A model generated the notes under the pieces. That model was given only the letters and a program-made list of their open reading frames with translations. It was not told the origin of the DNA and searched no databases. A program made the translations under genes and the position numbers. Below are positions 11,591 through 63,713 of a stretch of 64,000 bases of DNA, one piece after another (the first letter of the stretch is position 1; each line of letters opens with the position of its first letter). The stretch is taken from IMG/VR virus record IMGVR_UViG_2710264778_000001, positions 128,001-192,000 of that record; one strand, written 5' to 3'. The stretch comes from a virus. Its lineage: Duplodnaviria; Caudoviricetes.

Positions 11591-11661
11591 GATAAAAAGA
11601 CTATAAAATATGACTTTTAAAAGAATAAAATATATTAAAATATAAAGAAAGGAGTGGAAGA

Positions 11662-14322
11662 ATGTCAATTACAAAAATTAAACTTGGAAGTCTATTTATG
11701 AATAACTCCGCTGTACTTTTTGATACGGAAACTCCAGTTCAATATATAGATAATGCAACATTAGAATTAAAAAATGAAGTTACTAATTCTGCATACAATA
11801 TAGAATGGGTATCTTTTTCAGATGGAGTAAAAGAATTTTTATTATCAACTAGAAATATATTAACAAATATAAATTATGATACACTTAACATCCGTGCTTT
11901 TATTTCTGGAAATACAATAGTGACATTAAATTCTATAAAGTATAAGGTGAGACTATTAAGCACAGACGAATGGGATAAATATATTTGTAATTCAGCTAAT
12001 TTTACAAATTTATTATCGCCTACTACACAGGACAAAACAACAGGAGCATATACAGATAATACAATAGTGTCTAGTGACAGTAATACGTTATGGCATTGGT
12101 GGAAAATATCTAGTTTAACTCAAACTTTATCTGGAAATAATGTGGTTATACGTGGTAGTTCAACAATTAATGGAACAAATACAATTGATAAAAGCAATAA
12201 AAACGCAAATGTGGGTTTGCGTTTGCTTTTAGAAAAATATAATTCACCACCTACAATCAGCATTTCAAATTCAACACTAGGAAGTTTTTCGCAAAATTTT
12301 ACACTTCCATATACAGTAACTGATCCTGAGAATGATTTATTTAATGTGGTAGAACAATTAGATGGTATTACTATTAAAGAACTTAATAATCAAACTAGTA
12401 AAACTGAATTTACATTAACACTAGCTAATCAATGGAGTAATCTATCAGTAGGTAGACATGTTATAAATATATCTGTCACTGATAGCTATGATAATAATGT
12501 AACCAGACAATTAATATTTAATAAAATTGCAGTAGATAGTGGAACATCCGCGAACTTGACAAGACCTGTCATAATATTACCAATTAACTCTTCATCATTA
12601 AGGCCAATAGATGCAACAATAGATAACATAGTTAATTTTACTGTAACAGGAGGAGAACTATTCTACTCAAATGAAATAAATATAATATTAAATAGTTCTC
12701 AATCTTTAGTTTATAGTAAAAAAACAGAAAGTTTCGAATCTTCTATTACAGTGCCCAAAAATGTTTTAACTAATGGTAATGTATATCAAATTAAAATACG
12801 TACATATAATTCATTAGGTCAATATAGTGCTTGGTCAGATTCAGTATTAGTAAAAACTTTAACACCACCAGAGTTAATAATAACTTCTATTATAAATGGT
12901 AAAGTTGAAAGTCCTAATCCATTAATTATTGCTACTTATCATCAAGAAGAAAATGATAGCCTATATAAATATACATATAATTTATATAAAGATGGTGCTT
13001 TGATTGATAGTAGTGGTGTCTTATTTGATAATCTCTTACAATATCAATTTACTAATTTAGAAAACAAAACAACATATGTTGTAGAGTTAAAAGTAGAAAC
13101 TAGTAGTAATATGGAATATTCAATTTTCCAAGAATTCTATTGTATTTATCTACAATCAAAATTACCAGCAGTAATGAAGACAAGTAATGATTATAGGACT
13201 GGTTCTGTAAAAATAACAACATATGTTAGACAAATACTTGGTAGATTAGAAAGTGGAGATAAAATAACATATATAGATGGAGAATGGGCAGACATGCACA
13301 ATTCGGTTGCTATTTGGGATGCAGAATCTGCATTTAGATTAACAGGAAATTGGACTTGTAAAATATGGGCAAGAGATTTAGAAGATAATGGAGTAATGTT
13401 GATTAAATTTACTTTTGATGATGAAACATATGTTGAGTTAACTAGATGGTCAAATACATTTTACTTATCAAAATATGTAGCAGGTATAAAGCTATACGAA
13501 TTACATTCTACAATTCAAGGTGATATATTGTCTACAGATGAATTATACTTTTATATTCAAAATGATATTAATTTAGGGTTAATGAATTTCGATGCAAAAA
13601 GAATAACTGCTGGTAGAACAACATGGTTTATACCTAGTCATATAGAGGATAATCAACCACCATATTATACTGAAGGTGGATTTTTAACTAATTTTCAAGA
13701 TGATTTAAAAAATTTATTTGTTGATAACAAAATTAATGAAGAAAACATGAAAGTATATATTCCTACAATTGATGAAATGTTAAATGCAAATACAACATCG
13801 GCATTAGGCAAAGCAACAATAGGAACTATGTTGTTAAACTCTTCAAGTTACATAGAGTTAAAAGCAGATAAACCATATTTTACAAGAACTATAGACAATG
13901 TTGATAATTCAAAATTAAAAATATTTAATATAGATGGAACTATTGGAAGTGCGTTTCCAAATGAAAAATTGGGTGTTAGATTCGTTATAAAAATCCCTAA
14001 TACTGTAAAAGTAACAAATTTTAAAGATTCTATTGATAATTGCTACTTTATATCTATAAATGTTTTGAATCTATTTACAATTCGAAATATAGGTGAGTTA
14101 AATATTGGAGATAAGATAAAATCGTACTCAATAAAATATAATAATCAATTGATAAAGTTTACTGTATTAGCTAAAGAAAATGGTACAGTTTCTTTATTGT
14201 CAGATGTAATTAATACTTTAAAAGAATTTGATATATCTGAATCAAATTATATACATGGGAATACAGATTGGAATTTAAGTAACATAAAACAATGGTTAAA
14301 TTCTAATATAAAAATAGGCTAG
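11662..14322 (+). CDS. Tail protein with Ig/Fn3-like and DUF6273-like segments
   Basis: Beta-rich repeats such as 'YQIKIRTYNSLGQYSAWSD'; 'SNIKQWLNS' motif. Confidence 0.55.
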   Translation: MSITKIKLGSLFMNNSAVLFDTETPVQYIDNATLELKNEVTNSAYNIEWVSFSDGVKEFLLSTRNILTNINYDTLNIRAFISGNTIVTLNSIKYKVRLLSTDEWDKYICNSANFTNLLSPTTQDKTTGAYTDNTIVSSDSNTLWHWWKISSLTQTLSGNNVVIRGSSTINGTNTIDKSNKNANVGLRLLLEKYNSPPTISISNSTLGSFSQNFTLPYTVTDPENDLFNVVEQLDGITIKELNNQTSKTEFTLTLANQWSNLSVGRHVINISVTDSYDNNVTRQLIFNKIAVDSGTSANLTRPVIILPINSSSLRPIDATIDNIVNFTVTGGELFYSNEINIILNSSQSLVYSKKTESFESSITVPKNVLTNGNVYQIKIRTYNSLGQYSAWSDSVLVKTLTPPELIITSIINGKVESPNPLIIATYHQEENDSLYKYTYNLYKDGALIDSSGVLFDNLLQYQFTNLENKTTYVVELKVETSSNMEYSIFQEFYCIYLQSKLPAVMKTSNDYRTGSVKITTYVRQILGRLESGDKITYIDGEWADMHNSVAIWDAESAFRLTGNWTCKIWARDLEDNGVMLIKFTFDDETYVELTRWSNTFYLSKYVAGIKLYELHSTIQGDILSTDELYFYIQNDINLGLMNFDAKRITAGRTTWFIPSHIEDNQPPYYTEGGFLTNFQDDLKNLFVDNKINEENMKVYIPTIDEMLNANTTSALGKATIGTMLLNSSSYIELKADKPYFTRTIDNVDNSKLKIFNIDGTIGSAFPNEKLGVRFVIKIPNTVKVTNFKDSIDNCYFISINVLNLFTIRNIGELNIGDKIKSYSIKYNNQLIKFTVLAKENGTVSLLSDVINTLKEFDISESNYIHGNTDWNLSNIKQWLNSNIKIG

Positions 14323-14368
14323 GCGAAAAAATCTTAGTCTATTTTTATATATAAATATAGAGGAGGAA

Positions 14369-16813
14369 ATGAGAATGGCAACAAATATGACAGACACAGA
14401 TGCATTAAGATATTCAAGTTTTACAACTGACGAAAATCTAACACCTGATGATTTCATTTTATATAAAGATATAGATAAAGATCATAAAGATATGATAAAA
14501 AGATATTATACCCTTAAGGATAAAACTTTTATTACTGATACAGAAAAATTGGAAATGACACAACTATTGACTAATTTAGAAGAATATATGATTACAAGTG
14601 ATGCATTTAACAAGTTATGCGCATGTGTTAGAACAATGCAAATGTTTATGAGAGATGGTATAGTAATTTTTATAGATCAACAAAAATCAGAATTAATAGA
14701 ACTAATGCAAAGTTATAAAAAAGTTGGCATATGGAGCAGTGAAATATCATATAAAATTGGAAATGTAGTTACCTATAGTGGATATTCATTTTTAAGTAAG
14801 ATAGGGAATAACTTAAATAATCCCCCAAATATAGAAGCTACTGAAGATGATTATTGGTTAAAGTTAACAATTAAAGGAGATAAAGGTGATCCTAGCTTAA
14901 ATATATCTATAAAAAAAGGTACTGATGGTTCTGCAAATTATGATAATACAGTTCTTTACAATACAGGTGATGCTTGCATATATGAACACAGATTATATTA
15001 TGCTTTAGTGAATGGAATTATTGGAATTACGCCTACAGATAATACAAAATGGGCATGTGCAGACAAAGTAGTAGTAGACGCAAAAGAACCAACAGACCAA
15101 TATGTTGTTTGGTGGGATACAAGTTCTGGTAATAATACTTTTAAAAGATATAATAATAATACAAATATATGGACAGAACAAAGTATAAAAGGCATGAATG
15201 TATCCTTGATAGATAATGGAAATAAATTTGTGAATAAAAATGTTGAAGGAGCATTAAGTCAATTGGCGACCAATAGTATTCCTTATGCTGTAACAACTGG
15301 TTTAACTAATAATTATTCGATAACATTGAATCCAGCTCCAAGTTTTTATTTTGATGGAATGCCTATATGTGTAAAAATAAATGTATCTAGTACAGGAGCG
15401 AGCACAATAAATGTTAATAATCTAGGCGCAAAAGCTATTAAAAAGGCTAATGGCAATAATGTTACTAATTTAATTGCTGGATCAATATATACAATGAGGT
15501 ACAATGGAACAAATTTTATCTTGCAGGGTGAGGGTGGAAGTGGAAATGCCATGCCATCAGATCTTCGCTCTGGGAAAATAGCTTCAACAGACAATGGAGA
15601 TATTGTAGGGACAGCTCCAGAACAACCTTCTGCAACTTATATTGTTGGAACGAGCGATCAGATTATTGCTTCAGGGAAAATACTTTCAGGTAATCAAATA
15701 ATAAAAGGGTATCCAGATTTGATACCACAAAACGTAGCTGAAGGTAAAAGGATAGGAAACATTGTTGGTGAGTTGCTTGTATTAGATATAAACAAAGGTG
15801 GAGTGTTGGTTGGGATACCATCTTTAAATATTGGGGAAACAATATTGGATGTTATAAAAATAGAAGATAATAATTTTTATTATGTTGATAAAAATTATTC
15901 TATAAAGTACTTTGATTATAAACCCAGAAAAATCACTACAGTTTCAAACGTATCTGTACTTAACCCCTATAGTGGAAGTTTTATTGATTCTGGTGTATTG
16001 AAAGGGGTAACTAAAGATTATTATATAATTGGCACTCTTATTTTAGATAAAAATTTTAATCTAATTCGTAATTTAGCTGATATTAATAGTAATTTAAAGA
16101 ATTTTAAATATGACGTTATAATAGATCCATATGATAATTTGAATAATAGGATTTATATAAAAATATATTTTATATATAGTGGATCGGGATATCAGTATAA
16201 TTCTGAATCAATAATATCATATGATATTGATACGAATACATCTAGATCGATAGCATCAGTTGGTACTGGAAGTGGATGGGGATCTGTTTCAACTGTATTC
16301 AAAAACAGAGTTATAGTTGGAAATGATGTAAGTGATAGTGATAGTGATGTATATAAAATTATATATACTGCGCGGGATATAGATACAGGCGACACTATTA
16401 CACTAAAAACAGATCAATGGATTAATAGTAGGCATACCCAACAAAATCAATTACATACAAAATATTACACATGTACAAACTCAAAGAGACTAGTTGAATT
16501 AGCATGGTCTAAAGAAGATACAACAGGAACAAATACACATGATAATGTTATATATATGGCATATACAGTATATAATGATTATGGAAATGGATATTATAGT
16601 TTCAGGTCACCAATTTATAATGATTATGGTGATGCGGTTGAAATCGGGAAATTAGCCAAAATCGTATATAATAACAATATTGAAACATATATAGATAAAG
16701 ATATGTTTACATTAAGAAGTTCGACAATGAAAACAAGTCTAGGTGAAACATATTTAGCTTTTAGTAAAAATTTTATTATATGTTCTTCGGGAAATCTATA
16801 TTTATATAATTAA
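14369..16813 (+). CDS. Tail fibre / receptor-binding protein
   Basis: Carbohydrate-binding-like 'WSSEISYKIGNVVTYSG' repeats; short KGDKGD motif; clostridial fibre segment 'YNGTNFILQGEGG'. Confidence 0.6.
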   Translation: MRMATNMTDTDALRYSSFTTDENLTPDDFILYKDIDKDHKDMIKRYYTLKDKTFITDTEKLEMTQLLTNLEEYMITSDAFNKLCACVRTMQMFMRDGIVIFIDQQKSELIELMQSYKKVGIWSSEISYKIGNVVTYSGYSFLSKIGNNLNNPPNIEATEDDYWLKLTIKGDKGDPSLNISIKKGTDGSANYDNTVLYNTGDACIYEHRLYYALVNGIIGITPTDNTKWACADKVVVDAKEPTDQYVVWWDTSSGNNTFKRYNNNTNIWTEQSIKGMNVSLIDNGNKFVNKNVEGALSQLATNSIPYAVTTGLTNNYSITLNPAPSFYFDGMPICVKINVSSTGASTINVNNLGAKAIKKANGNNVTNLIAGSIYTMRYNGTNFILQGEGGSGNAMPSDLRSGKIASTDNGDIVGTAPEQPSATYIVGTSDQIIASGKILSGNQIIKGYPDLIPQNVAEGKRIGNIVGELLVLDINKGGVLVGIPSLNIGETILDVIKIEDNNFYYVDKNYSIKYFDYKPRKITTVSNVSVLNPYSGSFIDSGVLKGVTKDYYIIGTLILDKNFNLIRNLADINSNLKNFKYDVIIDPYDNLNNRIYIKIYFIYSGSGYQYNSESIISYDIDTNTSRSIASVGTGSGWGSVSTVFKNRVIVGNDVSDSDSDVYKIIYTARDIDTGDTITLKTDQWINSRHTQQNQLHTKYYTCTNSKRLVELAWSKEDTTGTNTHDNVIYMAYTVYNDYGNGYYSFRSPIYNDYGDAVEIGKLAKIVYNNNIETYIDKDMFTLRSSTMKTSLGETYLAFSKNFIICSSGNLYLYN

Positions 16814-16854
16814 AAACAATGAATTATACATTATATTAGGAGGTGAAATAGTTT

Positions 16855-17769
16855 ATGTTTCTGAATATGGAAGGATTTAATGACGGTTCTCCTTTTCTAT
16901 GGAATTGTTATACTGTACCAAAAGTAGATGCTATAAGAGTTTCAAATGGTATATATGATGAAATAAAAATAGATGAAACTTTAGATATAGAAAATTCTAT
17001 AGAAAAAGATGTATGGACTTTGGACACAGCCTTTGATGCTAAATTCCAAAATAATTTAGAAGCTGGCAATATAGGAAGTGGACTGCCAATTCAATACATT
17101 AGATTTAAACGTAGAAAAGTTGGTGAATTAAACTGGGAAGTGATGGTGGATGTTCCATTTGATAAAAATATTGAAAATTATGATATTATAGATTACTTGA
17201 TAGAAAATGCTGTAGATATTGAATATTGCTTAGTACCTCTTGTTCAGTTTATTGAAGGACAAGGGGTATCAAGTATAGTAACAACAGATTATAAAAGCTT
17301 GTTTTTAACTGGAAGAGATGAAAGCAATATATTACAGAATTATCCTTTACGATTTGATGAAAAAGCAAGTGATATAACAATAAATATGGATAAAACTATA
17401 CAAAAAACTCTTTCAAGCAAGTATCCAGCAATTCTCTGTGGTGAAAGTCAATATTTGAGTGGAAGTATTGCAGTAAAATTAGTTAGTCCTACAACTGAGG
17501 ATAATCAAGGGAGAATTGATATGAAAGCAGAAAAAGCATATCGAGAATCTTTCGAGACATTTATTTCTAGTGGACATCCAATTTTAATTAGAAATCACTC
17601 AATGTATATTTTAGGAACAATTCAAGAGCCAAAGAAAAATCCAGCTTTTGATGAAGAAGTAGCATTTGGTATTTATGATTATACTATGGCTTTTACCGAA
17701 GTAAACAATGCTAAAGATTTAGAAGTACTAAAAAGCAACGGATTAGTTTATACGGTTACAACAAATTAA
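16855..17769 (+). CDS. Tail/baseplate structural protein
   Basis: ORF with RBS inside the tail module. Confidence 0.5.
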   Translation: MFLNMEGFNDGSPFLWNCYTVPKVDAIRVSNGIYDEIKIDETLDIENSIEKDVWTLDTAFDAKFQNNLEAGNIGSGLPIQYIRFKRRKVGELNWEVMVDVPFDKNIENYDIIDYLIENAVDIEYCLVPLVQFIEGQGVSSIVTTDYKSLFLTGRDESNILQNYPLRFDEKASDITINMDKTIQKTLSSKYPAILCGESQYLSGSIAVKLVSPTTEDNQGRIDMKAEKAYRESFETFISSGHPILIRNHSMYILGTIQEPKKNPAFDEEVAFGIYDYTMAFTEVNNAKDLEVLKSNGLVYTVTTN

Positions 17770-17795
17770 AATTTAACAATAAAGGAGGTTAAATA

Positions 17796-20633
17796 ATGAC
17801 ATTATCCTTAAATAAGATAAATAAAAAAAATGGTGAACTTTTTACTGAAAATGATGTAAATAAAATAGATATAAATATGCAGATGATTCAAGACATGGTT
17901 AACACTTTACCAACATCAGCAGTAAAAGAAGTGATATCTAGTGAAATTAATGGGAATATAGTTGTAGATGGTGTTGAAACACAAGTTTATGTTCATCCTA
18001 GTGGAACCAATCCGCATGGTACAACTAAAACTGATGTTGGATTAGGTAATGTGGATAATACAAGTGATTTATCTAAACCAATTTCAACATCAACACAAAA
18101 TGCTTTAGATGAAAAAGTAGATAAAATTGTAGGTAAACAATTATCAACTGAGGATTATACAACTATTGAAAAGAATAAACTAGCTAACTTATTTAATTAT
18201 GATCATACAAATGTCGATAATCATATGGCTAACACAATAATACATGTTACTCAAGCTGACAAAGATTTATATTCTGATAAATATACAAAAAATGAAGTTG
18301 ACAATAAAATAAGTGCAGTAGTAACCAGTCTAGATTACAAGGAGCATGTGGCGACATTTGATGATTTAAATACTATCTATACAAACGCTCAAGAAGGTTG
18401 GACAGTAAGTGTAGACGATGATAATATTACTTATAAATATAGTGACGGGACTTGGATTCCTATTAGTGCAAATTCTATTCCTTTAGCTTCATCTAGCGTT
18501 GATGGCAAAATGTCAAAACAAGATAAAATAAAAGTTGATTCTATTACAGGAACAAACACAGGAGACGAAACACAAAATACAATAAAGACAAAGCTTGGAA
18601 GTGCTTCAAATTCTAGTGATGGTTATTTAACATCTACTGATTGGAATACTTTTAATAATAAAGCTAAAGTTAATGATATTTTATCAACTTCAATAAATGA
18701 CACATATTCAATAGATAAAATAGTATCATTATTAGCTAATAAACAAAATAAAATATATTTACAAAATACTCAACCGACTGATTTAGTTGATAAATTATTA
18801 TGGATACAAACAGGAATTACTCCATTATTGTTTTGGGAATATGATTCATCTACTACAAGTTTTAAACAAATTGGTTCTTCTGGTGGAGGTATAAGTATTG
18901 ATGACTGGATAAGTGGACAAAATTATAACCTAAAAGATTTTGTGATCAATAACTTAAATCTTTTTAGATGTAAAGTAGCAAATTCAGATACGAATTTTGA
19001 TTCTAGTAAATGGGATGAAATAGGAGGCGGATCTAGTTCAGGTGCAAGTGGAGTTGGACAAAGCACTGGTGGAATTGGTTCAGAAATTTTTAATGACTAT
19101 GTAAATAATACGATAAGTGGACAATATTCTCATGCAGAAGGTACACATAATATAATTAATGGTGATGTATCACATGTGGAAGGGAAAAATAATGTAATAA
19201 ACGCACCGAATTCTCATATATCAGGAACTTATAATTTAATTACCCCTGATATTAGTTCTCCAATAGCAGTAGTTGACACTCCATCTGCTACAGCAACAAG
19301 TATTTTTATTGTCAATACTGTTAGTGGTTTTACAGTTGGACAACAGGTTTGGACTTTTTCTTTAGCAGGAAATGGTCATAACAAGGCATCTATAACAGCA
19401 ATTGATACTACTACTAAAAAAATAACCTTAGATAGTTCCTTAGTATATTTAAAATATATAATTGGAATAACAAACAATAATGATGCAATGATAAATACGA
19501 TAGATGGTGGACAAAATTTACTTATTGGTAAATATTCAAAAATTTCAGGGTATCAAAATTATGGTAAAGCATTATACACTGAAATTGGAGGATACAATAA
19601 TACAGTTACTGCTGATTATGTGCATGTAAAAGGTTTTAATAATAAAGCACTAACACAATTTTCACATATAGAAGGGTATGGAAATTTGATACAATCTGGT
19701 TCAAATTCTCATCTTGAAGGAAATAATAATATTGCTAATGGAGAGTCTATTCACATTGAGGGTACAAGTAATCAGGTGACAGGAGCATATTCAAATGCAG
19801 AAGGGGCATACAATTTGATAAACTCATCTTATTCATCAGCATATGGTTACTATAACATAACCAATAATCTAGGATCGACTGTAATGGGACAGTATTGTAA
19901 AACTCCAGTTCAATATAACAATGGGACATCTTTTAGTTCATCTGCCGATGCCCTAACTATTGGCTGTGGAACATCTGATACGTCAAGAGCTAATGCTTTT
20001 AGAGCTACATTTGCTGGTAAATTATACTGTTTGCAAGCATATTCTTCAACAGGCGCGGATTATGCTGAATGGTTTGAATGGTTAGATGATAACGAATTAA
20101 GTGAAGATAGAGTTGGTAAGTTTGTAACATTAATTGGAGATAGAATCAGAATAGCAAATTCAACTGATGATTATATATTGGGAATAGTTTCAGGAAATCC
20201 TTCTGTTATTGGAGATGCGCAAGATGATAGTTGGGTAGATATGTATGTAAGAGATGAGTTTGGACGATTACAATATGAAGACGTTGAAGTTGAAGCAGTA
20301 ACTAAAGTCATCCCAGAAATTTCAGAAATAATTGATGGTGAAAAAGTAATAATAAAACCTGAAGAAAAAATAGTTATTAAGCCAGCAGGAATAGAGCATA
20401 GAATAAAGCTAAATCCAGAATATGATTCATCAAAAGAATATATTCCTAGAAGCCAACGAAAAGAATGGAGTTGTGTAGGAATGATGGGAAAATTAATTGT
20501 TTATGATGATGGCACTTGTGAGGTTAATGGTTATTGTAAATCTGGTGATAATGGAATTGCAACAAAATCGGAGAGTGGATATAGGGTTATGAAAAGAGTA
20601 TCTAATAATATAGTTCAAGTATTGGTTAAATAA
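17796..20633 (+). CDS. Tail spike/fibre with beta-helix and C-terminal peptidase G2-type autocleaving chaperone domain
   Basis: 'NPHGTTKTDVGLGNVDNTSD'; SHAEG/HIEG repeats; 'GADYAEWFEW...VGMMGKL'. Confidence 0.75.
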   Translation: MTLSLNKINKKNGELFTENDVNKIDINMQMIQDMVNTLPTSAVKEVISSEINGNIVVDGVETQVYVHPSGTNPHGTTKTDVGLGNVDNTSDLSKPISTSTQNALDEKVDKIVGKQLSTEDYTTIEKNKLANLFNYDHTNVDNHMANTIIHVTQADKDLYSDKYTKNEVDNKISAVVTSLDYKEHVATFDDLNTIYTNAQEGWTVSVDDDNITYKYSDGTWIPISANSIPLASSSVDGKMSKQDKIKVDSITGTNTGDETQNTIKTKLGSASNSSDGYLTSTDWNTFNNKAKVNDILSTSINDTYSIDKIVSLLANKQNKIYLQNTQPTDLVDKLLWIQTGITPLLFWEYDSSTTSFKQIGSSGGGISIDDWISGQNYNLKDFVINNLNLFRCKVANSDTNFDSSKWDEIGGGSSSGASGVGQSTGGIGSEIFNDYVNNTISGQYSHAEGTHNIINGDVSHVEGKNNVINAPNSHISGTYNLITPDISSPIAVVDTPSATATSIFIVNTVSGFTVGQQVWTFSLAGNGHNKASITAIDTTTKKITLDSSLVYLKYIIGITNNNDAMINTIDGGQNLLIGKYSKISGYQNYGKALYTEIGGYNNTVTADYVHVKGFNNKALTQFSHIEGYGNLIQSGSNSHLEGNNNIANGESIHIEGTSNQVTGAYSNAEGAYNLINSSYSSAYGYYNITNNLGSTVMGQYCKTPVQYNNGTSFSSSADALTIGCGTSDTSRANAFRATFAGKLYCLQAYSSTGADYAEWFEWLDDNELSEDRVGKFVTLIGDRIRIANSTDDYILGIVSGNPSVIGDAQDDSWVDMYVRDEFGRLQYEDVEVEAVTKVIPEISEIIDGEKVIIKPEEKIVIKPAGIEHRIKLNPEYDSSKEYIPRSQRKEWSCVGMMGKLIVYDDGTCEVNGYCKSGDNGIATKSESGYRVMKRVSNNIVQVLVK
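18705..18755 (+). repeat. 51-bp exact direct repeat, copy 1 (copy 2 at 27321-27371)
   Basis: TATTCAATAGATAAAATAGTATCATTATTAGCTAATAAACAAAATAAAATA present in two fibre genes. Confidence 0.9.
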
Positions 20634-22557: not shown

Positions 22558-22722
22558 GAATAAAATATAATTAAGAATAGAACTTAAAATCTGAAATTTA
22601 TTGGGATTTTTAATTTTAAGAATGAGACTATGACTGGGTTCTAGGAATTCGGTTATGGTCTTTTTATTATGTTTATTTTTAATTAAGTTCATCCCTTTGG
22701 GTGGATTTATAAAAAATAAAAT

Positions 22723-25407: not shown

Positions 25408-25610
25408 AATATAAATAAGTTGTATAAGATTAAGGATTAATTTCTTTAGTCTTATATAATTAAATGAAAATTAATATCTGCTTAAAATTATAGATTTAAG
25501 TTAAAGTTACTTCAATAAAGCCTATTAATTAGTAGGTTTTTAGAACTAACTAAGTGAGTATGTTAGCTAGATACTCATAGAAAATATATAACAGAAAGGA
25601 ATGATTTATA

Positions 25611-31049: not shown

Positions 31050-31460
31050 ACCTTAAATAACAATAAAAAATGATGGTTGAAAAATCTTCTATTGCCAATA
31101 TAATCTTAACATATGTTCGTATAAATTGTAAATATAAAAATAAGGAAGTGAAATTAAATTCTACTTCCCTACTTTGGTGTATTATGTGTATATCGTATCT
31201 AAACGGATATAAAAATAATTATAACATAATATCAGTTGTTTGTAAATATAGCTGAAATTTTATTTTGGATTTGAAAAGGTGTTTGGATTATAAAATACTA
31301 GCCTTTAATAAAAGTTTCATCGATATTTTTAACACAAAGGATTTTGGTCAGACAAAGTCAAAGTTAAGTTAAAAGAAAGATTTTATAAGAACATGAATGG
31401 CTCTATATCTGGGTTCGTGAAATTGAAATTCATAAAAATAAGTAGGATTCTCTCCTACTT

Positions 31461-31691
31461 TTAATATTCACGCAATCTTTTTAAAAAACGTTTCATTATT
31501 TCGTCATCATATAGTAGTTCTACTAGTATGTCTAGACATTTTGTACGTGGAACTTTAAGATCAGTATACATTTGTTTGAAGTCTTTATAATAATCTTCGC
31601 GAATTGATGTATAAATATCTACTCTATTGTATTCAAGGTAATCTTTATCTTTATAATATTTGTCTTTATATGTAAAACCCATAATATTCAC
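31461..31691 (-). CDS. Small putative DNA-binding protein
   Basis: 76-aa ORF with AAGGA RBS-like sequence; RHH-like C-terminus. Confidence 0.4.
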   Translation of the reverse strand: MNIMGFTYKDKYYKDKDYLEYNRVDIYTSIREDYYKDFKQMYTDLKVPRTKCLDILVELLYDDEIMKRFLKRLREY

Positions 31692-31991
31692 TCCTTATAT
31701 ACATAATTATAACATATGTTAATAATATGGACAACATATTTGTAATAAATAATGTTTAAGCGAAAATATGTCTTACATATGTTAATAGTATAAAAGTTAT
31801 GTAATGCAAGTGATTTAAACAGGTTAAAGACATATGTTTATAAATTATAGAATCTTTGAAGAATAAATATACAAAATATATGAATATTAATACATAATAA
31901 AATTGAATATATGCATGGCTATATATGGAGTTTGTAATTGTACAGGCTCTTTTTATTATATAAAAATTTAGAATCAGAAAGGAATGATGAT

Positions 31992-32504
31992 ATGGGAAAA
32001 TACTCAAGTAAAAAGGTTAATGATCCACAATGGGGAGAGTTCGATAGCACTACTGAACATAAATTTTGGCTTGAATTATTAAAACAACAAGAAAAAGGAG
32101 AGATAGCTAATTTAGAAAGACAAAAACCATTTTTATTAGTACCAGCCTTTAAAGATTCCCACTACGAAAATAAAGCAATTCGTAAAATGGAATATGTCTC
32201 AGATATGAGTTTTATCAGAGATGGTCAACTAGTCGTTGTTGATGTAAAAGGCAGTTTATATAATATTACAAATGAATCCAAGGTAAAGATAAAAATGTTT
32301 AAATATCTAAATCAAGATATTAGGTTTGAATTGATTGTTACATATGATGGTAGATGGTTCAATTTAGAAGATAAAATTCAAAAGAAAGAGTACACAGAAT
32401 TAATTAAACAGAAAAAACTTGAAAAGAAAGCCAAGAAAGAAGCTAGAGAAAAAGCAAAGTCTGAAAAGCTAACTACTAAGAAAAAGAGTGTTAAAAGGAA
32501 ATAA
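31992..32504 (+). CDS. DUF1064-family PD-(D/E)XK nuclease-like protein
   Basis: 'FDSTTE...LERQKPFLL...EYVSD...VVDVKG'. Confidence 0.75.
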   Translation: MGKYSSKKVNDPQWGEFDSTTEHKFWLELLKQQEKGEIANLERQKPFLLVPAFKDSHYENKAIRKMEYVSDMSFIRDGQLVVVDVKGSLYNITNESKVKIKMFKYLNQDIRFELIVTYDGRWFNLEDKIQKKEYTELIKQKKLEKKAKKEAREKAKSEKLTTKKKSVKRK

Positions 32505-32525
32505 ATTATGATGGGGTGAATTGAG

Positions 32526-32723
32526 ATGAACGAAAACTTTGATTTAAATGAATATGCTTATGTCTGCTATTCAGTAAATTTATATAATCAATTTAAAAAC
32601 AATCATATTAGGTATTTTATTAAAGGTAAAAATGAAGTGTCTAATAAAACATTTTGGATTTATCCAAAGACAGAACAAGTAAAAAAGATATTAATAAAAT
32701 GGACAGATGGAGTTGGTAAGTAA
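32526..32723 (+). CDS. Small hypothetical phage protein
   Basis: ORF with RBS. Confidence 0.55.
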   Translation: MNENFDLNEYAYVCYSVNLYNQFKNNHIRYFIKGKNEVSNKTFWIYPKTEQVKKILIKWTDGVGK

Positions 32724-32793
32724 TTTATCAGCTCTTTTATTATGTTCAATTTTATGTTTATAAAAATAGTTTATAGAAAGAAGGAATTTAGAA

Positions 32794-35461: not shown

Positions 35462-35487
35462 CCACATAAAACTATGTTTTTAAAAGG
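35462..35487. other. dif-like putative recombination site CCACATAAAA-CTATGT-TTTTAAAAGG
   Basis: Two inverted arms with a 6-bp spacer immediately after the recombinase stop; related copies throughout the window. Confidence 0.55.
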
Positions 35488-39920: not shown

Positions 39921-40679
39921 TTAGTCATTAATATCCACTTCATATTTATACATGGAGTTATATAACGCATTAGGAATTATATTTTTGTATTCATTAGCAA
40001 CCTCTTTAATATATTTTTCTTTTGCTATTTTATATTTTTTATGTGCTTCAAATTTATCACTGAAACTTCCCAAATATACTTCCCCTTTTAATGTATGTAA
40101 TCTACTTCTAAATGAATTACTATCTGAATTTTCACTTACACCTATTGGCAAATTACCTCTTGACGCATTTGATTTTAAAAATAATTGATTGATTCTTTTT
40201 GGCACAAATATACATGTTTCAGGACTGTAAACTGTATTGCCTTTATAAAGTATATCTTTATCTAATTCAGTTTTACCTAATTCATTTATTTCATAATAAT
40301 TTTTTTCAAACCATTTGGCAAAGTTTTGAAAACACAACCAATCATCACATACATATTTGTTTTTATAAGTTGGTTTTTGTGTTTGATATTCTTCACTATA
40401 GCAACGCTGTAACATTCTAACCCAATAACAATATGCTTTTGTCTTTTCCTTATCTTTGTATGGCAAATAATCTCCCACACCTAAATAACCAACACCAAAC
40501 ACTTTTTTATCATAAGGATTCTTGATTTTCCCTAGTTTAAATTCTTTATATTGGCAATTAACCACATATTTAAAACTATCTTGGAATTCTACATACATAT
40601 TATCACTTCTTATATATTTTATAATTTTCATTTTAGTACCATTTGTATTTTCTCTTATTTCTCCTATTCTATCTTTCAT
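39921..40679 (-). CDS. HNH/AP2-type free-standing homing endonuclease (paralog 1)
   Basis: 'W..MLQRCY','LDKDIL','YSPETCIFVP.RIN'; AP2-like 'YLGSF'. Confidence 0.7.
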   Translation of the reverse strand: MKDRIGEIRENTNGTKMKIIKYIRSDNMYVEFQDSFKYVVNCQYKEFKLGKIKNPYDKKVFGVGYLGVGDYLPYKDKEKTKAYCYWVRMLQRCYSEEYQTQKPTYKNKYVCDDWLCFQNFAKWFEKNYYEINELGKTELDKDILYKGNTVYSPETCIFVPKRINQLFLKSNASRGNLPIGVSENSDSNSFRSRLHTLKGEVYLGSFSDKFEAHKKYKIAKEKYIKEVANEYKNIIPNALYNSMYKYEVDIND

Positions 40680-41961: not shown

Positions 41962-42002
41962 TAAACTCTCTCCTTTAAGTTTTATAATTTTGTATATTTT
42001 AT

Positions 42003-42128
42003 TTATTCAATGTTTGCGTTCTTGAAAGCTTGTTCATATTCACTCATATCATTTTCATCAAACCATTTGCTATAAATATCTGTAACATCTGGAATAGAAT
42101 CAAATAAATCAACAATGTTATTTGGCAT
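42003..42128 (-). CDS. Small acidic protein (41 aa, not in the ORF track)
   Basis: MPNNIVDLFDSIPDVTDIYSKWFDENDMSEYEQAFKNANIE; AGGAGG RBS; TTGACA-17-TATTAT promoter upstream. Confidence 0.55.
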   Translation of the reverse strand: MPNNIVDLFDSIPDVTDIYSKWFDENDMSEYEQAFKNANIE

Positions 42129-42317
42129 AATACAACCCCTCCTAATTTTATAATATAATTTATGTATTTCATATAAGGCTTGGACTATTTACTATTTAGT
42201 TCCTACCCTTGATATAATAATACTACTATTGCATATTATTGTCAACAACTTATTTATATTTTATTTACATTATTTAAAAAAGGTAGAAAAATAATTTCCA
42301 CCTTTTAATATATGTAT

Positions 42318-43560: not shown

Positions 43561-43663
43561 AATCTACTCCTTTCTATAACTTAGTTATAATTTATCTATA
43601 AGTAGTTAAATGTATGATTTTAACTAGTTTTTATAGTTTGGGAGGCTAGTAATAGCCCCATTC

Positions 43664-44657: not shown

Positions 44658-44878
44658 TATATTAATCTCCTTTTAGTAAAATATATAATTTTTATTTGAA
44701 CCTTCGGTAATAGAATCTCTTGATAATTTTTCATTTGGGTATTCAGAGTCCCCAAGTTCTATAGTATAATCTTGATTTAATGTTTTAAGATATTCTATTA
44801 ATTCTGCTACTGTCATTGCATCTTCCATTTATATTAACTCCTTTCCCAATGCTTTAAATTGTAGTTTTTATTGTCTTT

Positions 44879-45612: not shown

Positions 45613-45724
45613 TTTACATCTCTCCTCTTTCTTTTATTATTTAATTTATTTGTAATGTCATAAAATATTCTTTTGATTGACTTTTTTGTTTTAAGATAAG
45701 GGAATAAATCCCCTATCTATTAGC

Positions 45725-47116
45725 TTAATTTAAATCAACTTCATATTGATTGCTTGAACCATACATCGAATTTTCACATTTCTTATCTTTTTCAAACTTT
45801 CCACATATTAACTTATCAATATATTTTGTTTGTTCTAAATTTTTTATATCATTGTATTCATATCCAGTCCAAACAAAAATACTACAATCAGGAATTTCTT
45901 CTTTTACTGATTTTAATAAATCTAATAATTCTTCTCTATTATATGGTGCGAATGGTTCACCACCTAAAACTGATAAAGCCTTTCTTTCTTTACATAATTC
46001 TATTATTTTTTGTTTATTTAATTTAAATTCTGTATCATGTTTCCATAAAAATTGATTATGACAATCTTCACAATGGTGTGGGCATCCTGTAAACCATACT
46101 GATACTCTTAATCCTTCACCATTTAGTATTTCAAAATCGTGAATTCCTCGTTCAACTTCTCGTCCATAATGAACTTCTCTATCTTGATTTTCTTGTTCTT
46201 TTCCTTCATTTACTCTTGTATCACCATCAATAACATAATAAGAAAGATATCCACAAACTCTGTCAGTAACTATTATTTTTTTACTACCACAATGAGAACA
46301 ATGAGGATTTGTTTTATCATAATCAAGTATTTCTTTGCCACAATTCTCACAAATAGCTGAATCGAAGTTTACTCCTTCATATAATCCCATTTTCATAGCA
46401 TGTCTTGTAACTTGACTTATAGCTTTTATATTGTGATTTATAGGGTACTCGCTATAAAAAATGTGACCACCATTGCTTAAATCAAACATAGGTTTTTCTA
46501 TTTTCATTTTTTCAAATGGATCAATTTTAGCAGTAACATTTACATGAAAACTATTCATAAAATATTTTTTGTCAGTTATTCCTTTAACTTCACCAAAATG
46601 TTCAAATTCTTTATCTCTACAAGTTTCAGCATACTTTTCGGCAGGTGTTCCGTAAATTGCAAATAATAATCCATGTTTTTTGATGGCTTCATCTTTCCAC
46701 TTGTTTAAATGTTCTAAAACTTTGATAGAAAAACTGTTATCTTCATGTTCTTCTTTTCCAGTCATTAATAAATTCACTTCATTTAACCCTATATATCCAT
46801 ATGACCAAGTAAAAGTTCTTATTGCTTTTTCAATAGTTTCATCAGGTTTAAGTTTCATATGACATCCACCCTCACAAAAGAACAATGGATTTGAACTAGC
46901 TAAAACATTTTTCATTCTATTAAATTGCCATAAATGTCCTTCAGTTGCTAAGTCAAAATACTTTTTAAGTTCTTTGAAATAAGCTTTTTCATCTCTTGTT
47001 TCTCTAAACATTAATGCTGGTCTTACTGTATTTAAAGTTATTGCACCACAATTTGCCCTTCCATTAAATACTGGGTTGCCATTTTCATCAAACCATACTG
47101 ATAAATAAGCTCTACA
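45725..47116 (-). CDS. nrdD: Anaerobic ribonucleotide reductase exon 2, fused in frame to the NrdG radical-SAM activase
   Basis: Catalytic 'CRAYL', 'TPAE', Zn CxxC pairs, glycyl motif RVCGYL, then 'NGEGLRVSVWFTGCPHHCEDCHN' and 'LGGEP'. Confidence 0.9.
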   Translation of the reverse strand, partial: CRAYLSVWFDENGNPVFNGRANCGAITLNTVRPALMFRETRDEKAYFKELKKYFDLATEGHLWQFNRMKNVLASSNPLFFCEGGCHMKLKPDETIEKAIRTFTWSYGYIGLNEVNLLMTGKEEHEDNSFSIKVLEHLNKWKDEAIKKHGLLFAIYGTPAEKYAETCRDKEFEHFGEVKGITDKKYFMNSFHVNVTAKIDPFEKMKIEKPMFDLSNGGHIFYSEYPINHNIKAISQVTRHAMKMGLYEGVNFDSAICENCGKEILDYDKTNPHCSHCGSKKIIVTDRVCGYLSYYVIDGDTRVNEGKEQENQDREVHYGREVERGIHDFEILNGEGLRVSVWFTGCPHHCEDCHNQFLWKHDTEFKLNKQKIIELCKERKALSVLGGEPFAPYNREELLDLLKSVKEEIPDCSIFVWTGYEYNDIKNLEQTKYIDKLICGKFEKDKKCENSMYGSSNQYEVDLN

Positions 47117-47383
47117 CACTTCATTCTATTATTTCTAATAGCGTGGACTATACCTTTATATACCTTTTAACAAGAGTTTATTTGTAGTTACTCTAAAGAT
47201 ATATACCTCACATTAAGCTAATTTAAATATAATTAACTTACACATATTGGTCTACAAAACCTTCTGTGAAGTCTCTACACCGTTGCTTTATTACTAAAGC
47301 CTTTAGGCTCGGTATTACCTTATCATAAGACTTAGGCTTCACCGATTTGAGTGAGGTTTTGTATGGGCAGTAGATTATATTCT
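47117..47383 (-). mobile_element. ORF-less group I intron in nrdD (267 nt)
   Basis: P1 ATGGGTAG/CTGCCCAT with U-G pair; P3 CCTCAC/GTGAGG; P7 GACT/AGTC ('AAGGTATAGTCC'); terminal G; splicing gives APMG-CRAYL. Confidence 0.9.
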
Positions 47384-50555: not shown

Positions 50556-50773
50556 AATTATCTCTCCTTTTATATATCATATATTTTATTTACTTTCCCT
50601 TAAAATTAACATTTTAACAGGTTATCTGACCTCTGTAAGCTAGTAAACAAGCCATTCTTAAATTTAATTTTTATAAAAATTGACTAATTTTAAGAATTTG
50701 CTCTATAATCGCTTAGAAATCAATTTTTCTCAAAAATTCTGTTTTTAACAATTCTATATAATTATAGACGACT

Positions 50774-51611: not shown

Positions 51612-51828
51612 ATTTTATAACTCCTTTATTAATTTATTTTTATATTTTATTTAAATCTATTCTTTTATTGTTTCTTGCATTCTTCATACATAAAATTTAA
51701 TATCCCTATTATAGCTATAAACTTTAAATAAGATATATCATTAGTAATTAGTATGCAAATAATAACTAGCACATCTAATATCAATGATATCTTTGTAGAT
51801 AATTTCATTATTTATATTCACCTTCTTT

Positions 51829-53474: not shown

Positions 53475-53519
53475 TTTGGTAGATGTTATATTAGTAAATC
53501 TCTGGTTAAAATCTGCAAT

Positions 53520-53717
53520 TTACTTATTCTGTAATTGATAAAAATTAACACCAACTTTTCCAACATCAATATCTGCTATAAGTATTGTATTGATTCTTGT
53601 AACTATAATATTACTCTTATCATTTGTAATACTTATATTATCAATTTCTTTATCTCCATTAATATTAATATACTTCTCAACTTCATTTCTAATATCACTT
53701 AATTTCATTGGTTTCAC
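53520..53717 (-). CDS. Hypothetical protein
   Basis: ORF; stop codon lies within a palindromic site. Confidence 0.5.
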   Translation of the reverse strand: MKPMKLSDIRNEVEKYININGDKEIDNISITNDKSNIIVTRINTILIADIDVGKVGVNFYQLQNK

Positions 53718-54045: not shown

Positions 54046-54241
54046 TTATATCACTTCCTTTCATAACTAATATTACCATATTAAATTTAGTTTGTCTATA
54101 CTTAATTATATTTTATTTATATTGTTTTCTTTTGTATAAAATTAATAGCTATAAAGGATTTATTGGTTTGTTTATCCTCTATAGCTATATATTACTACTA
54201 TTTTATACCATAGTCAAGCATTATTAATTATATTTTGTTTT

Positions 54242-56308: not shown

Positions 56309-57088
56309 TTAATCAGTTATTTCTACTTTCCAATTATACATAGCATTGTAAAGTTTAATTGGAATTTTATCCTTATATTTATCAGCAACTTCTTTGATAT
56401 ATTGCTCTTTAAAAGGTTTATATCCTTTATAAAAAGCATCTTCTGGAGTTTCAAAGCTACCTAATTTTTTATTATATGAGGAGTTAATATCTAAATTATA
56501 TACACTACAACACGCTCGATAGTTATTATTTAATTTATTATAGCTTACCCCTAATGGGAAATTACCTCTAGCTTTGTCACATTTAACAAATAAATTATTT
56601 ATTCTTCTTGAAACAAATACACAATTATCAGGAGAATATATTTTATTTCCCTTAACCAATATGTCTTTATCGAGAGACATTCGCTCTCCTTCAATTTCAT
56701 AATAATTATCATCAAACCATTTTGCAAAGTTTTGAAAATTATGCCATTCTTCACAAACAATACAATTTTTATATGTAGGATATATTTTTAATTTATTTGG
56801 ATTATAACATCTATCTAACATACTTGTCCAATACTTATAATGAATTGTTCTTGCTTTAATCCCTTTGAAAAAAGTATAATCTCCTTCACCTAAATATCCT
56901 ATGTTATGTACTCCTCTGTCATATGGATATTTTGTATCTCCATTAATAAAATGATGATATGTAGTTTCAGTTTTATATCCACTTTCAAATTGTACAGTTA
57001 TATTATTTGCATCTTTATATTGAATGATTTCCATTTTATTATTAAACTTATTAAAATTTATTTCACCTATTCTGTTAATTTCTTTCAT
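56309..57088 (-). CDS. HNH/AP2-type free-standing homing endonuclease (paralog 2)
   Basis: Same motifs as 39921-40679. Confidence 0.7.
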   Translation of the reverse strand: MKEINRIGEINFNKFNNKMEIIQYKDANNITVQFESGYKTETTYHHFINGDTKYPYDRGVHNIGYLGEGDYTFFKGIKARTIHYKYWTSMLDRCYNPNKLKIYPTYKNCIVCEEWHNFQNFAKWFDDNYYEIEGERMSLDKDILVKGNKIYSPDNCVFVSRRINNLFVKCDKARGNFPLGVSYNKLNNNYRACCSVYNLDINSSYNKKLGSFETPEDAFYKGYKPFKEQYIKEVADKYKDKIPIKLYNAMYNWKVEITD

Positions 57089-59104: not shown

Positions 59105-59869
59105 CTAATCTGTTATTTCTACTATATAGTTATATAGTGCATTGTATAGTTTTTTAGGTATTATGCCCTTGTACTCATCAGCCACTTGTTTTATATATTT
59201 TTCTTTAAATGGTTTATAGCCTAAATAAAAAGCATCTTCAACATTAGAATATATACCTAAATATATAGTTTTTCTTTTTTTATTATTTAATGTACTACAA
59301 TAAGACTGATATCCATTATTTTTACAACTGACACCTATAGGATATTCGCCTCTAACTTTATTACATTTACAAAACAAAGTATTTATTCTTTCAGGGACTA
59401 TCAAACATGTTTCTGGCGAATATATTTTATTATTTTTATGTAAGATATCTTTGTCTATACACATCTTTTCGTTATCTACTTCATACCAGTTATTATAAAA
59501 CCACTGTGCAAAGTTCTGAAAATTTAACCACTCTTTGCAAATAGTAACCTCTTTATAACGTGGTCTTTTGCTTAAATCTTTGTCGTTGTAACAACGTTTT
59601 ATTATGTCATTCCAGTATCTGTAACACAGTGTTTCTTTTTTATTTATGTATGGATTATATTTACCTTCTCCTAGATAGCCAATACCATATACAGTTTTAC
59701 AATATGGTGATTTAATACGATTGTTTTTAAAATTATCATATGTACTAATTGTTTCATATCCATTATCAAATCTTATTTTTATATTCATTGCATTTAAATA
59801 TTCTATTATTGTCATTTTACTTCCGAAATTATTAATTTTTGTTTCTCCAACTCTATCTATTCTTTCCAT
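59105..59869 (-). CDS. HNH/AP2-type free-standing homing endonuclease (paralog 3)
   Basis: Same motifs as 39921-40679. Confidence 0.7.
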   Translation of the reverse strand: MERIDRVGETKINNFGSKMTIIEYLNAMNIKIRFDNGYETISTYDNFKNNRIKSPYCKTVYGIGYLGEGKYNPYINKKETLCYRYWNDIIKRCYNDKDLSKRPRYKEVTICKEWLNFQNFAQWFYNNWYEVDNEKMCIDKDILHKNNKIYSPETCLIVPERINTLFCKCNKVRGEYPIGVSCKNNGYQSYCSTLNNKKRKTIYLGIYSNVEDAFYLGYKPFKEKYIKQVADEYKGIIPKKLYNALYNYIVEITD

Positions 59870-60683: not shown

Positions 60684-60747
60684 TATTCACTCCTTAATAT
60701 TTATATAATTTATTTCTAAATAAAATTTCTCTTTTAAAAAATTCGCA

Positions 60748-62108: not shown

Positions 62109-62263
62109 TTTAACATCACTCTCTTTCTTTTATTTTTAACTTAATTATAATTTATCTATATTCTTATAAAATACAAATTTGATTGGGATAATATTTATCA
62201 ATGTTCGTATTGCTGATGTATTATCCCGTAATTTTTATCATTTTTCAGTTGTTTTAATTTATA

Positions 62264-63104: not shown

Positions 63105-63119
63105 TATTTATCACCTCAT

Positions 63120-63611
63120 TTAACAAATTTGCCACCAATAATCAAAGACTTTTCTATAGGAATTACCTTTTAATTTAAAGTCTTTATTTCTTCTGACTTT
63201 AACATTACTAAATTTCTTATAATAAACTGTTCTGCTATATTTATTACTATGATTGGTTAAATAGTTTCTTTCTAAATATCCATCTCTTTCTGATACAACA
63301 TAGTAAGAACAAATATCTTTTATGTTTTGTAATTTTTGTTGTGTTATCTTCTTACGTTCATATTGATTTAATCTAGGATTTCTTTTCTTTTTAACTAGTT
63401 TAGGATTATTCTCATCATAGTATTCTATAGCTTCTTCTAAGTTTTGTTGTATAATACTAAAATATTCATCTTCTGAGCCTATTAATTCTTTTGGTTCATT
63501 ATATAAATCTTCAACTCCAAAACACCAATATTCAAATTCATCATCTTGGAGGGTTCTATATGCTTGTACTTCAATTAAATCTAGTTGTAAATCTTCTAAT
63601 GATTTATTCAT
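63120..63611 (-). CDS. Hypothetical phage protein
   Basis: RBS; C-terminal 'GNSYRKVFDYWW'. Confidence 0.55.
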   Translation of the reverse strand: MNKSLEDLQLDLIEVQAYRTLQDDEFEYWCFGVEDLYNEPKELIGSEDEYFSIIQQNLEEAIEYYDENNPKLVKKKRNPRLNQYERKKITQQKLQNIKDICSYYVVSERDGYLERNYLTNHSNKYSRTVYYKKFSNVKVRRNKDFKLKGNSYRKVFDYWWQIC

Positions 63612-63713
63612 AATGTCACCTCTTTTAAACTTAATTATAATTTATTTATTTCCTTATAAAACAAGCTTTTTAACTAGTTGTCCAACTCTCTAAATGCCCT
63701 AGAATAGCCATTA

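Follow-up and report, generated by a model that had tools for sequence, protein, structure and literature searches.

A spacing-specific 16-bp palindrome at the gene junctions of SPbeta-like phages, a candidate operator-like site

The window analysed here, a stretch of 64,000 nucleotides that corresponds to bases 128001-192000 of a 229,129-bp IMG/VR virus record (the whole record is termed G000; G+C content 25.8%), carries a palindrome, TAAAA-N6-TTTTA (in relaxed form TAAAW-N6-WTTKA), at the junctions of its genes. This palindrome characterizes an entire phage family, SPbeta included, and is not a peculiarity of one metagenomic contig. We give about an even chance to the reading that it is an operator-like site for a putative dimer, which punctuates early and accessory operons and secondarily forms a joint between modules. 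The initial annotation of the window had described about 15 of these palindromes as dif-like sites of a candidate gene-cassette system, at which a phage tyrosine recombinase would insert, excise or shuffle accessory genes. The part of this claim that concerns marks at gene boundaries, where relatives often differ, is retained, but the recombinase mechanism is not.

Results

Spacing specificity of the palindrome

When TAAAW-Nk-WTTKA is counted in the intergenic DNA of G000 for k = 0-15, it is found 64 times at k = 6 and 7-23 times at all other k. The strict palindrome is found 52 times at k = 6 and 3-15 times at other spacings, and the counts in coding DNA are flat across k (29-74). Simulation of the intergenic DNA by an order-2 Markov model yields 12.3 ± 3.6 sites (maximum 22), as compared with 55 observed, and TAAAA-N6-TTTTA ranks first when all spaced dyads of 5-mers are scanned de novo in G000, with 29 copies against a mean of 2.0 at other spacings. 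The spacing control, the Markov model and the dyad scan therefore indicate that the motif is real, spacing-specific and intergenic. The ends of G000 (1-18919 and 210211-229129) form a direct repeat of ~19 kb with an offset of 210,210, the copies of which are not perfectly identical; its sites and genes are counted double unless one copy is trimmed.

The window contains 35 distinct matches to TAAAW-N6-WTTKA, 16 in intergenic DNA (the 15 of the initial annotation and one at 1141-1156) and 19 in coding DNA, and the density of matches is ~1.8 per kb in the former and ~0.35 per kb in the latter. Counted by strand, the hits number 55, as compared with 31 ± 6.5 upon dinucleotide shuffling of the whole window. 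A scan of the whole genome against controls had been proposed as a check of the sites, and it reveals an intergenic enrichment that is confined to k = 6. The observation is confirmed, and is stronger than had been stated.

Distribution of the palindrome among relatives

Relatives of G000 were located via the topoisomerase and the recombinase. The palindrome is enriched at k = 6 in the intergenic DNA of G001 (196 kb; 53 versus 4-13 at other spacings) and G002 (147 kb; 39 versus 1-14), and also in the fragment G004 (14 versus 0-5; 14 of 15 sites intergenic). SPbeta (NC_001884) has 41 strict sites at k = 6 in intergenic and coding DNA together, versus 4-15 at other spacings, and 27 versus 0-8 in intergenic DNA alone. 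The SPbeta sites lie mostly within operons of small early genes, and only ~5 of them are in the YonO-dependent late cluster. TAAAA-N6-TTTTA is the top spaced dyad found de novo in four genomes (24 versus 0.3 in SPbeta). Each genome has ~40-60 palindromes, and roughly one gene junction in four is marked by one.

The complete relative G003 (112 kb, 33% G+C) lacks the motif (4 sites versus 7 for the control). The top dyad of G003, ATTAT-N4-ATAAT, is rejected as an analogue of the motif; its copies cluster as an array within the first 6 kb, and it does not mark junctions. The region 500-6100 of G003 contains ~25 copies of an 18-bp palindrome, ATATTATTnnAATAATAT, in 6 kb, often followed by CCGAGCGGGAG, and this cluster is an iteron- or operator-like array.

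Kinship to SPbeta is seen in the recombinase, which is 52% identical to YomM (E 2e-119), in a large open reading frame (ORF), common to all relatives, that is homologous to the YonO RNA polymerase (E 1e-29), and in a YopQ-like protein of G000. The relatives have just 45-100 recognizable proteins in common with G000, with a median identity of ~37% (G002). At the DNA level, no more than a few conserved genes of G001, G002 and G004 align with G000 (65-82% identity), and fine mapping of breakpoints did not succeed there. The window has no match in the phage collection by megablast and no Rfam family at gathering thresholds, and no description of the motif was found in the searchable literature.

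Conservation of the spacer at individual positions

No two sites of one genome share a 16-mer (0 identical pairs among 1485 in G000, 1953 in G001 and 780 in G002), and pairs with near-identical spacers are mildly depleted within these three genomes (19 versus 32.5 expected). Canonical excision, insertion and shuffling are therefore excluded, because they need partner sites with identical centres and a genome has none. Seven sites that are collinear in G000 and G001 show 0, 0, 0, 0, 2, 1 and 1 mismatches per 16 bases, whereas their flanks are ~35-40% identical, which is the random level, and most of the genes between them have no detectable homology. This result indicates that the centre of the palindrome is constrained at each position. 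The spacers are not conserved between G000 and G002, and near-identical spacers across genomes are not significantly in excess overall (32 versus 26.4); the signal is that of the collinear set in one region.

Anatomy and placement of the sites

The symmetric core of the palindrome is TAAAA(t)-N4-(a)TTTTA; of 114 sites, 96 have A at position 5 and 89 have T at position 12. Each arm has five informative bases (weakly six), and the flanks are without dyad symmetry. The term dif-like therefore overstates the resemblance, because only five bases per arm are conserved. Position +20 is G in 64 of the 114 sites and in 28 of 33 sites of G002, and this G is the first base of the next packed element, either the second repeated box described below (P box) or the Shine-Dalgarno (SD) sequence. 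The apparent asymmetry of the site is probably a matter of context, because the G belongs to whichever element comes next. The symmetry of the core and the packing of the next element fit a footprint of ~20-22 bp.

More than half of the sites are located 0-30 nt past the upstream stop codon, and 17 of the 40 intergenic sites of G002 contribute the TAA of the motif as the stop codon itself. The site is followed mostly by a ribosome-binding site, in 20-30% of cases by the second box and in 10-15% by a hairpin that resembles an intrinsic terminator; hairpin terminators proper are located 10-50 nt downstream of some sites. Promoter-like boxes are found beside 23-29% of the palindrome sites, as compared with 8-17% of the gene ends that are free of sites.

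The second box, which can also precede the palindrome, reads AAAYAAAATATAAnTAAGT in G000, ATAAATTAAT in G001 and ATAAAATATTAAA in G002. Its core in G000, TATAA[ACT]TAAG, is present in 55 copies in this genome, which are co-oriented with the genes. The box is placed either right before a ribosome-binding site or right upstream of a TTGACA box, and these are the two contexts of SPBRE, the operator of the recombinase-fold repressor MrpR/YopR/SroF in SPbeta. It may be the operator of a YopR/MrpR-like protein or a T4-late-like promoter (TATAAATA); it suits an SPBRE-like role in G000 better than the palindrome does, and may be the counterpart of SPBRE. At aimR of SPbeta, the palindrome is located between the yopJ terminator and the SPBRE with its promoter, 10 nt from SPBRE, in largely untranscribed DNA. 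The same composite, in which the palindrome is 10-11 nt upstream of SPBRE or the P box, is found in G000 at window positions 43607, 62167 and 63657.

Two other roles were considered for the palindrome and rejected. It is not an intrinsic terminator or RNA hairpin, since its stem of only five A-T (A-U) pairs is too weak, and Rfam gives no family. It is not the -35 element of a promoter: the proximal arm is 17 nt from TATAAT in five window sites, but the distance to the box is 4-13 nt in G002, and a ribosome-binding site often follows at once.

Mosaic junctions in SPbeta and its close relatives

Close relatives exist for SPbeta only, and the region 89-121 kb of SPbeta was aligned to phi3T, Goe12, SPR and BUCT083. 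Homology boundaries coincide with a palindrome edge in 8 of ~32 distinct cases (92392, 92747, 92768, 95128, 99496, 113536, 113654 and 115037), which are drawn from few genomes and are not mutually independent. At all 8 boundaries, the palindrome and its spacer are the same in both phages. The order yorS, palindrome A, yorT, palindrome B, mtbP of SPbeta corresponds to yorS, A, methylase, B, methylase of phi3T, which is a clean replacement between two palindromes. The same spacer is thus found beside different genes, and the sites are therefore positional joints that are tied to neither the upstream nor the downstream gene.

According to an approximate hand count, ~24 boundaries are at gene junctions and ~8 of these 24 are at palindromes, and about a third (~36%) of the gaps of the region carry a palindrome. 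This result indicates that boundaries are not in excess at palindromes over gene junctions generally. Other boundaries are at ATAAAAATAAAAT boxes, ribosome-binding sites and stop codons. This spectrum agrees equally well with a dedicated enzyme and with exchange at any short conserved sequence, after which intact genes are selected. The expectation that relatives differ at the sites thus holds for a part of the boundaries, but without enrichment of the sites among gene junctions.

The YomM-type recombinase

The tyrosine recombinase of the window matches PF00589 (Phage_integrase catalytic domain; 41.2 bits) and PF13495 (N-terminal SAM-like; 30.9 bits), both above the cut-off. Its Arg I, His, His and Tyr align with those of XerA and a XerC-like enzyme, and the Lys that replaces Arg II is also present in YomM of SPbeta. 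Apart from YomM, the protein is 53% identical to its counterpart in G003, 79% in G002 and 78% in G004, as compared with a median of 37% for shared proteins. The DNA identity between G002 and G004 is 76-77% for the recombinase and ~76% for the YonO-like polymerase. The high conservation of these two genes points to recent transfer or strong constraint. Nothing was found in the literature on the function of YomM.

The best match to the recombinase in G001, which has the motif, is just 27% identical, and G003, which has the 53%-identical YomM orthologue, lacks the motif. The recombinase therefore does not co-vary with the motif. The proposal that this enzyme inserts, excises or shuffles cassettes is not borne out: no 16-mers are shared within a genome, the enzyme and the motif do not co-vary, Arg II is Lys, the adjacency of a site to the recombinase gene is not conserved, and junctions are not enriched at the sites. 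The only role left for the recombinase, at low probability, is allelic exchange between co-infecting genomes at sites of the same address.

Features of the window

The plus-strand genes, which extend to ~36.6 kb of the window, encode tape-measure, tail and fibre proteins, and the last of them encodes the recombinase. The minus-strand genes, from 37 kb, encode dihydrofolate reductase, thymidylate synthase, an ATP-dependent ligase, an anaerobic ribonucleotide reductase, topoisomerase II subunits and many small ORFs. The features are listed in Table 1. All 15 palindromes of the initial annotation match TAAAW-N6-WTTKA at their coordinates and lie between called ORFs, as had been claimed. The arms said to supply stop codons at 51652 and 53507 do so for minus-strand ORFs, the site at 35467 does abut the stop codon of the recombinase gene, the flanks said to be shared by 35467 and 39473 and by 43607 and 63657 were found (TAACCACATAAAA and TTTTAACTAG), and the sites are indeed concentrated among small genes, with few in the tail operon. 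The additional match at 1141-1156 may be a chance variant, because its right arm overlaps a -35-like box.

Table 1. Palindromes, second elements (P boxes) and recombinase gene of the window
Feature	Position	Strand	Remarks
Intergenic match TAAAACTTAATATTGA	1141-1156	.	Absent from the initial annotation; right arm overlaps TTGAAA (-35-like)
Junction palindrome TAAAATATGACTTTTA	11604-11619	+	14 nt past stop of 10409-11590; 43 nt ahead of 11662
Junction palindrome	22585-22600	+	P box at 22566 before; intrinsic-terminator-like hairpin after
Junction palindrome	25483-25498	+	Terminator-like hairpin next
Palindrome, convergent gap	31370-31385	.	Between 31070-31255 (plus) and 31461-31691 (minus)
Junction palindrome	35467-35482	+	6 nt past recombinase stop; adjacency not kept in SPbeta or G002
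Junction palindrome	39473-39488	-	Both flanking genes 12-13 nt away
Junction palindrome	43607-43622	-	P box ATAAATTATAAC begins 11 nt downstream in gene direction
Junction palindrome	44855-44870	-	Immediately ahead of ribosome-binding site
Junction palindrome, variant arm	45661-45676	-	TCAAA in gene direction
Junction palindrome	50601-50616	-	ATAAAATATA box next
Junction palindrome	51652-51667	-	Arm is TAA stop of minus-strand ORF 51665-51808
Junction palindrome	53507-53522	-	Arm is TAA stop of minus-strand ORF 53520-53717
Junction palindrome	60721-60736	-	
Junction palindrome, variant arm	62167-62182	-	P box 11 nt downstream
Junction palindrome	63657-63672	-	P box 11 nt downstream
Second element	22566	+	
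Second element	24850	+	
Second element	25410	+	
Second element	35564	+	
Second element	42249	-	
Second element	43580	-	
Second element	49763	-	
Second element	49974	-	
Second element	53725	-	
Second element	54101	-	
Second element	62140	-	
Second element	63630	-	
YomM-type tyrosine recombinase, 334 aa	34457-35461	+	Arg I, His, His, Tyr present; Arg II replaced by Lys (HLFK)

Several other features of these genomes were observed. Paired palindromes that resemble NrdR boxes (ACACAATATATAGTAT type) follow several junction palindromes, at 35483-35560 of the window, at 62.5 kb of G000 and at 26.7, 66.9 and 119.5 kb of G001. Good promoters of the sigma-A type (TTGACA/TTGACT, 17 nt, TATAAT/TATTAT) are present on the minus strand at 38799-38938, 41962-42317 and 54046-54241 of the window, where the gaps of the replication arm are longer. 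At 3106-4803, 4905-5783 and 5992-10035 of the window, the tape-measure gene is split in two, with a 292-aa ORF and long non-coding stretches in between. At 45725-47119 and 47120-47374, the NrdD-like gene is truncated, its C-terminal part is fused to an activase-like part, and it adjoins a G+C-richer gap of 255 nt. These features may represent introns or inteins. A multi-copy family of ~255-aa genes is represented by the minus-strand ORFs 39921-40679, 56309-57088 and 59105-59869 of the window, a copy at 193.4 kb of G000 and two copies in G001, to which the identity is 52-58%. Its members are located between core genes, for example between the topoisomerase II subunit genes, and the family looks like a mobile, homing-endonuclease-like gene; the single copy scanned (39921-40679) has no Pfam match.

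Discussion

The palindrome as an operator-like site

The palindrome is a 16-bp dyad, the half-site centres of which are 11 bp, or one helical turn, apart, in the geometry expected for an operator bound by a dimer. The sites are in the short stretches that separate a stop codon from the ribosome-binding site or promoter-like box of the following gene, mostly in operons of small early or accessory genes. Most likely, a phage-encoded (or widely conserved host) DNA-binding dimer would occupy them and would affect transcription through or beside them as a roadblock, silencer or insulator. At some sites, those with an SPBRE-type box at a distance of 10-11 bp, the dimer may act jointly with a repressor of the SroF/MrpR type. 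The sites are also joints where relatives differ, because nothing but the 16-mers is preserved between neighbouring genes that have no other relationship, and exchange at these joints would proceed via short homology.

We favour this operator-like reading because strict spacing and dyad symmetry are found together in the intergenic DNA of five genomes (G000, G001, G002, G004 and SPbeta), because some sites are in mostly untranscribed DNA (aimR) and 10-11 nt from SPBRE or the P box, because promoter-like boxes co-occur more often with sites than with site-free gene ends, and because the stem is too weak for an RNA hairpin and the spacers are constrained at each site, in the way that the non-contacted central bases tune affinity in operators of phage 434.

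Several observations weigh against it. The putative binding protein has phyletic candidates only, and ~60% of the sites have no recognizable promoter box or terminator alongside. The site is present in 15 of 36 convergent gaps and in 7 of 40 divergent gaps, and in long gaps it hugs the upstream stop codon; the operator model predicts neither. All six spacer bases are fully conserved, which is more than the tuning of affinity would predict. The gene calls, made as greedy ORFs, are crude.

Candidate readers

The sole phyletic candidates for a protein that reads the palindrome are the YopQ- and YopR-like module proteins, which SPbeta, G000, G001 and G002 have and the motif-free G003 lacks (five genomes only). 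This module is a lead, not evidence. MrpR/SroF of SPbeta acts as a monomer on an asymmetric box of 24-26 bp, and chromatin affinity purification sequencing (ChAP-seq) gives just 10 peaks, at SPBREs (PMC10516654; bioRxiv 10.1101/2025.11.27.690993). It was rejected as the reader, since the box that it reads is a different, asymmetric one and its peaks number just 10. The MrpR-like protein of G000 (31802-32980) was likewise rejected, as it is below the Pfam cut-off for MrpR_N_CB and has no significant BLASTP match to YopR, and so was the Xre protein of G000 (35602-35940), which has no SPbeta homologue.

The lysogeny module of G000 (28-39 kb) is of the SPbeta type and encodes a MazF/PemK-like toxin, a YopQ-like protein (22% identity, E 4e-9), an Xre helix-turn-helix protein and a Xer-like integrase. 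It also encodes a YopR-like protein of the recombinase fold, apparently without Arg I. A beta-CASP RNase and a ClpP-like protease are encoded close to the YonO-like polymerase, split in G000.

Alternative explanations

Of the alternatives, the one that survives best, though we consider it unlikely, is that the palindromes are heterospecific joints. The YomM-type recombinase would cut on both sides of the 6-bp spacer and recombine only sites of the same address on co-infecting or concatemeric genomes, such that modules are swapped without deletions or inversions. The 5-6-5 geometry with its 6-bp centre, the lack of identical 16-mers within a genome, the depletion of near-identical pairs, the spacers kept at collinear positions of G000 and G001 between unrelated genes, the 8 boundaries at palindrome edges with the clean replacement between A and B, and the unusual conservation of YomM are all in agreement with such joints. 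However, the conserved part of each arm is just 5 bp, the YomM orthologue is present in G003 without the motif, Arg II is Lys, and the site beside the recombinase gene is not conserved. In addition, junctions are not enriched at gaps with a palindrome, other junctions fall on other short conserved boxes, ribosome-binding sites and stop codons, and the spacers of G000 are not conserved in G002. That such exchange operates in nature as a cassette system, in which the late protein YomM recombines each of ~50 joints with common arms and private 6-bp centres only with the same joint of a co-infecting relative, ranks just behind in probability and is improbable. If it were true, modules would be swapped precisely at gene boundaries and their order would never be scrambled.

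We regard as equally improbable an intercistronic element at the RNA level, UAAAA-N6-UUUUA, which would be bound by a protein or nuclease and would set the processing, stability or translation of the next cistron. The order stop codon, palindrome, 5-15 nt and SD sequence in SPbeta and G000, the use of the motif as a stop codon in G002, the position of the palindrome ahead of an intrinsic terminator where one exists, and the beta-CASP RNase and MazF-like nuclease encoded by the phage and conserved in three phages are consistent with such an element. Dyad symmetry is, however, useless in single-stranded RNA, in which a stem of five A-U pairs is unstable; some sites are past terminators or upstream of promoters, and sites are also present in convergent and divergent gaps.

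Less probable again is that the YonO-like RNA polymerase of the phage uses the palindrome as a signal, either as a promoter that initiates near +20 or as a terminator at gene ends. The phage has a YonO homologue, and the promoter of YonO is not known (PMC5467207); the sites are co-oriented with the genes, have a purine at +20 and closely precede ribosome-binding sites. In SPbeta, however, it is the late cluster that YonO transcribes, and the sites concentrate in the early region, which is not transcribed by it (PMC5467207). In addition, G003 has the polymerase but not the motif, divergent gaps of G000 seldom carry a site (1 of 20), a terminator sometimes follows the site directly, and a promoter-like box is sometimes directly upstream of it.

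A chance product of AT-rich intergenic DNA, made up of TAA stops and A/T runs, might be suspected from the 26% G+C of G000 and from a motif that starts with TAA and ends with its complement, but this explanation, to which we give next to no probability, is ruled out by the spacing control, with its excess at exactly 6, and is opposed by the Markov control and by the lack of the motif in G003 at 33% G+C and its presence in SPbeta at 35% G+C.

Comparison with known systems

SPBRE, like the palindrome, is a dispersed intergenic repeat of the same phage family that precedes a -35 box or a ribosome-binding site, and the two are 4-11 bp apart in some gaps (aimR and yosX of SPbeta; 43607, 62167 and 63657 of G000). 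They are nevertheless different elements that coexist in SPbeta: SPBRE is an asymmetric box, AAATACAAAWAATATGTAT, present in ~10 copies at early promoters and read by a monomer, whereas the palindrome is a dyad with a free centre, present in 40-60 copies and without ChAP-seq peaks of MrpR.

XerCD/dif and pdif sites resemble the palindrome in that two inverted arms enclose a centre of 6 bp and the gene of a tyrosine recombinase is close by. The central region of exactly 6 bp is within the 6-8 bp of tyrosine-recombinase core sites (dif/lox/att), but their inverted arms of 9-13 bp (11 bp in dif) are replaced by 5 conserved bp, the centres all differ within a genome and are shared only at the same position across genomes, and a cognate recombinase does not co-occur with the motif (G003, G001). 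Heterospecific lox/FRT sites, with common arms and differing spacers that would limit exchange to like sites, are an engineered laboratory system. The attC sites of integrons are also present once per gene end, with conserved ends and a variable, site-specific middle, but they are imperfect repeats of 57-141 bp that recombine as folded single strands and travel with the gene, unlike the 16-bp, positional palindrome; no integron context (IntI, attI or Pc) was seen.

The promoter early stem-loop (PeSL) cassettes of T4-type phages, attributed to Arbiol and colleagues (2010), and the boundary or linker sequences of lambdoid phages, attributed to Clark and colleagues (2001), are said to be short regulatory sequences at mosaic junctions. 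The palindrome behaves as such a mosaic-boundary sequence at the 8 SPbeta-family boundaries and in the collinear 16-mers of G000 and G001 between unrelated genes: like PeSL cassettes and linkers, it is a short conserved sequence on either side of small, variable genes, at places that are also mosaic junctions, where exchange is said to depend on short homology. PeSL cassettes differ in consisting of a promoter and a stable stem-loop in near-identical copies, as compared with a dyad with a unique centre at each position.

Operators of comparable layout are TGTGA-N6-TCACA of CRP/FNR and ACAA-N6-TTGT of phage 434, and the C1 operators of phage P1 are dispersed. These share with the palindrome the half-sites one helical turn apart, a centre that is not contacted yet can tune affinity and the many operators over a large temperate genome, but most palindromes are not at recognizable promoters, and their reader is putative only.

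Significance

In the accessory regions of these phages, which evolve fast, no sequence is better conserved than the palindrome, and it is located at the points where relatives differ. Its reader, once found, would add a missing layer to the lysis-lysogeny and early-gene programme of SPbeta, and might explain how SPbeta-like phages exchange genes cleanly at gene boundaries. SPbeta is among the best-studied temperate phages of Bacillus subtilis, and its host is genetically tractable, so that these ideas are directly testable.

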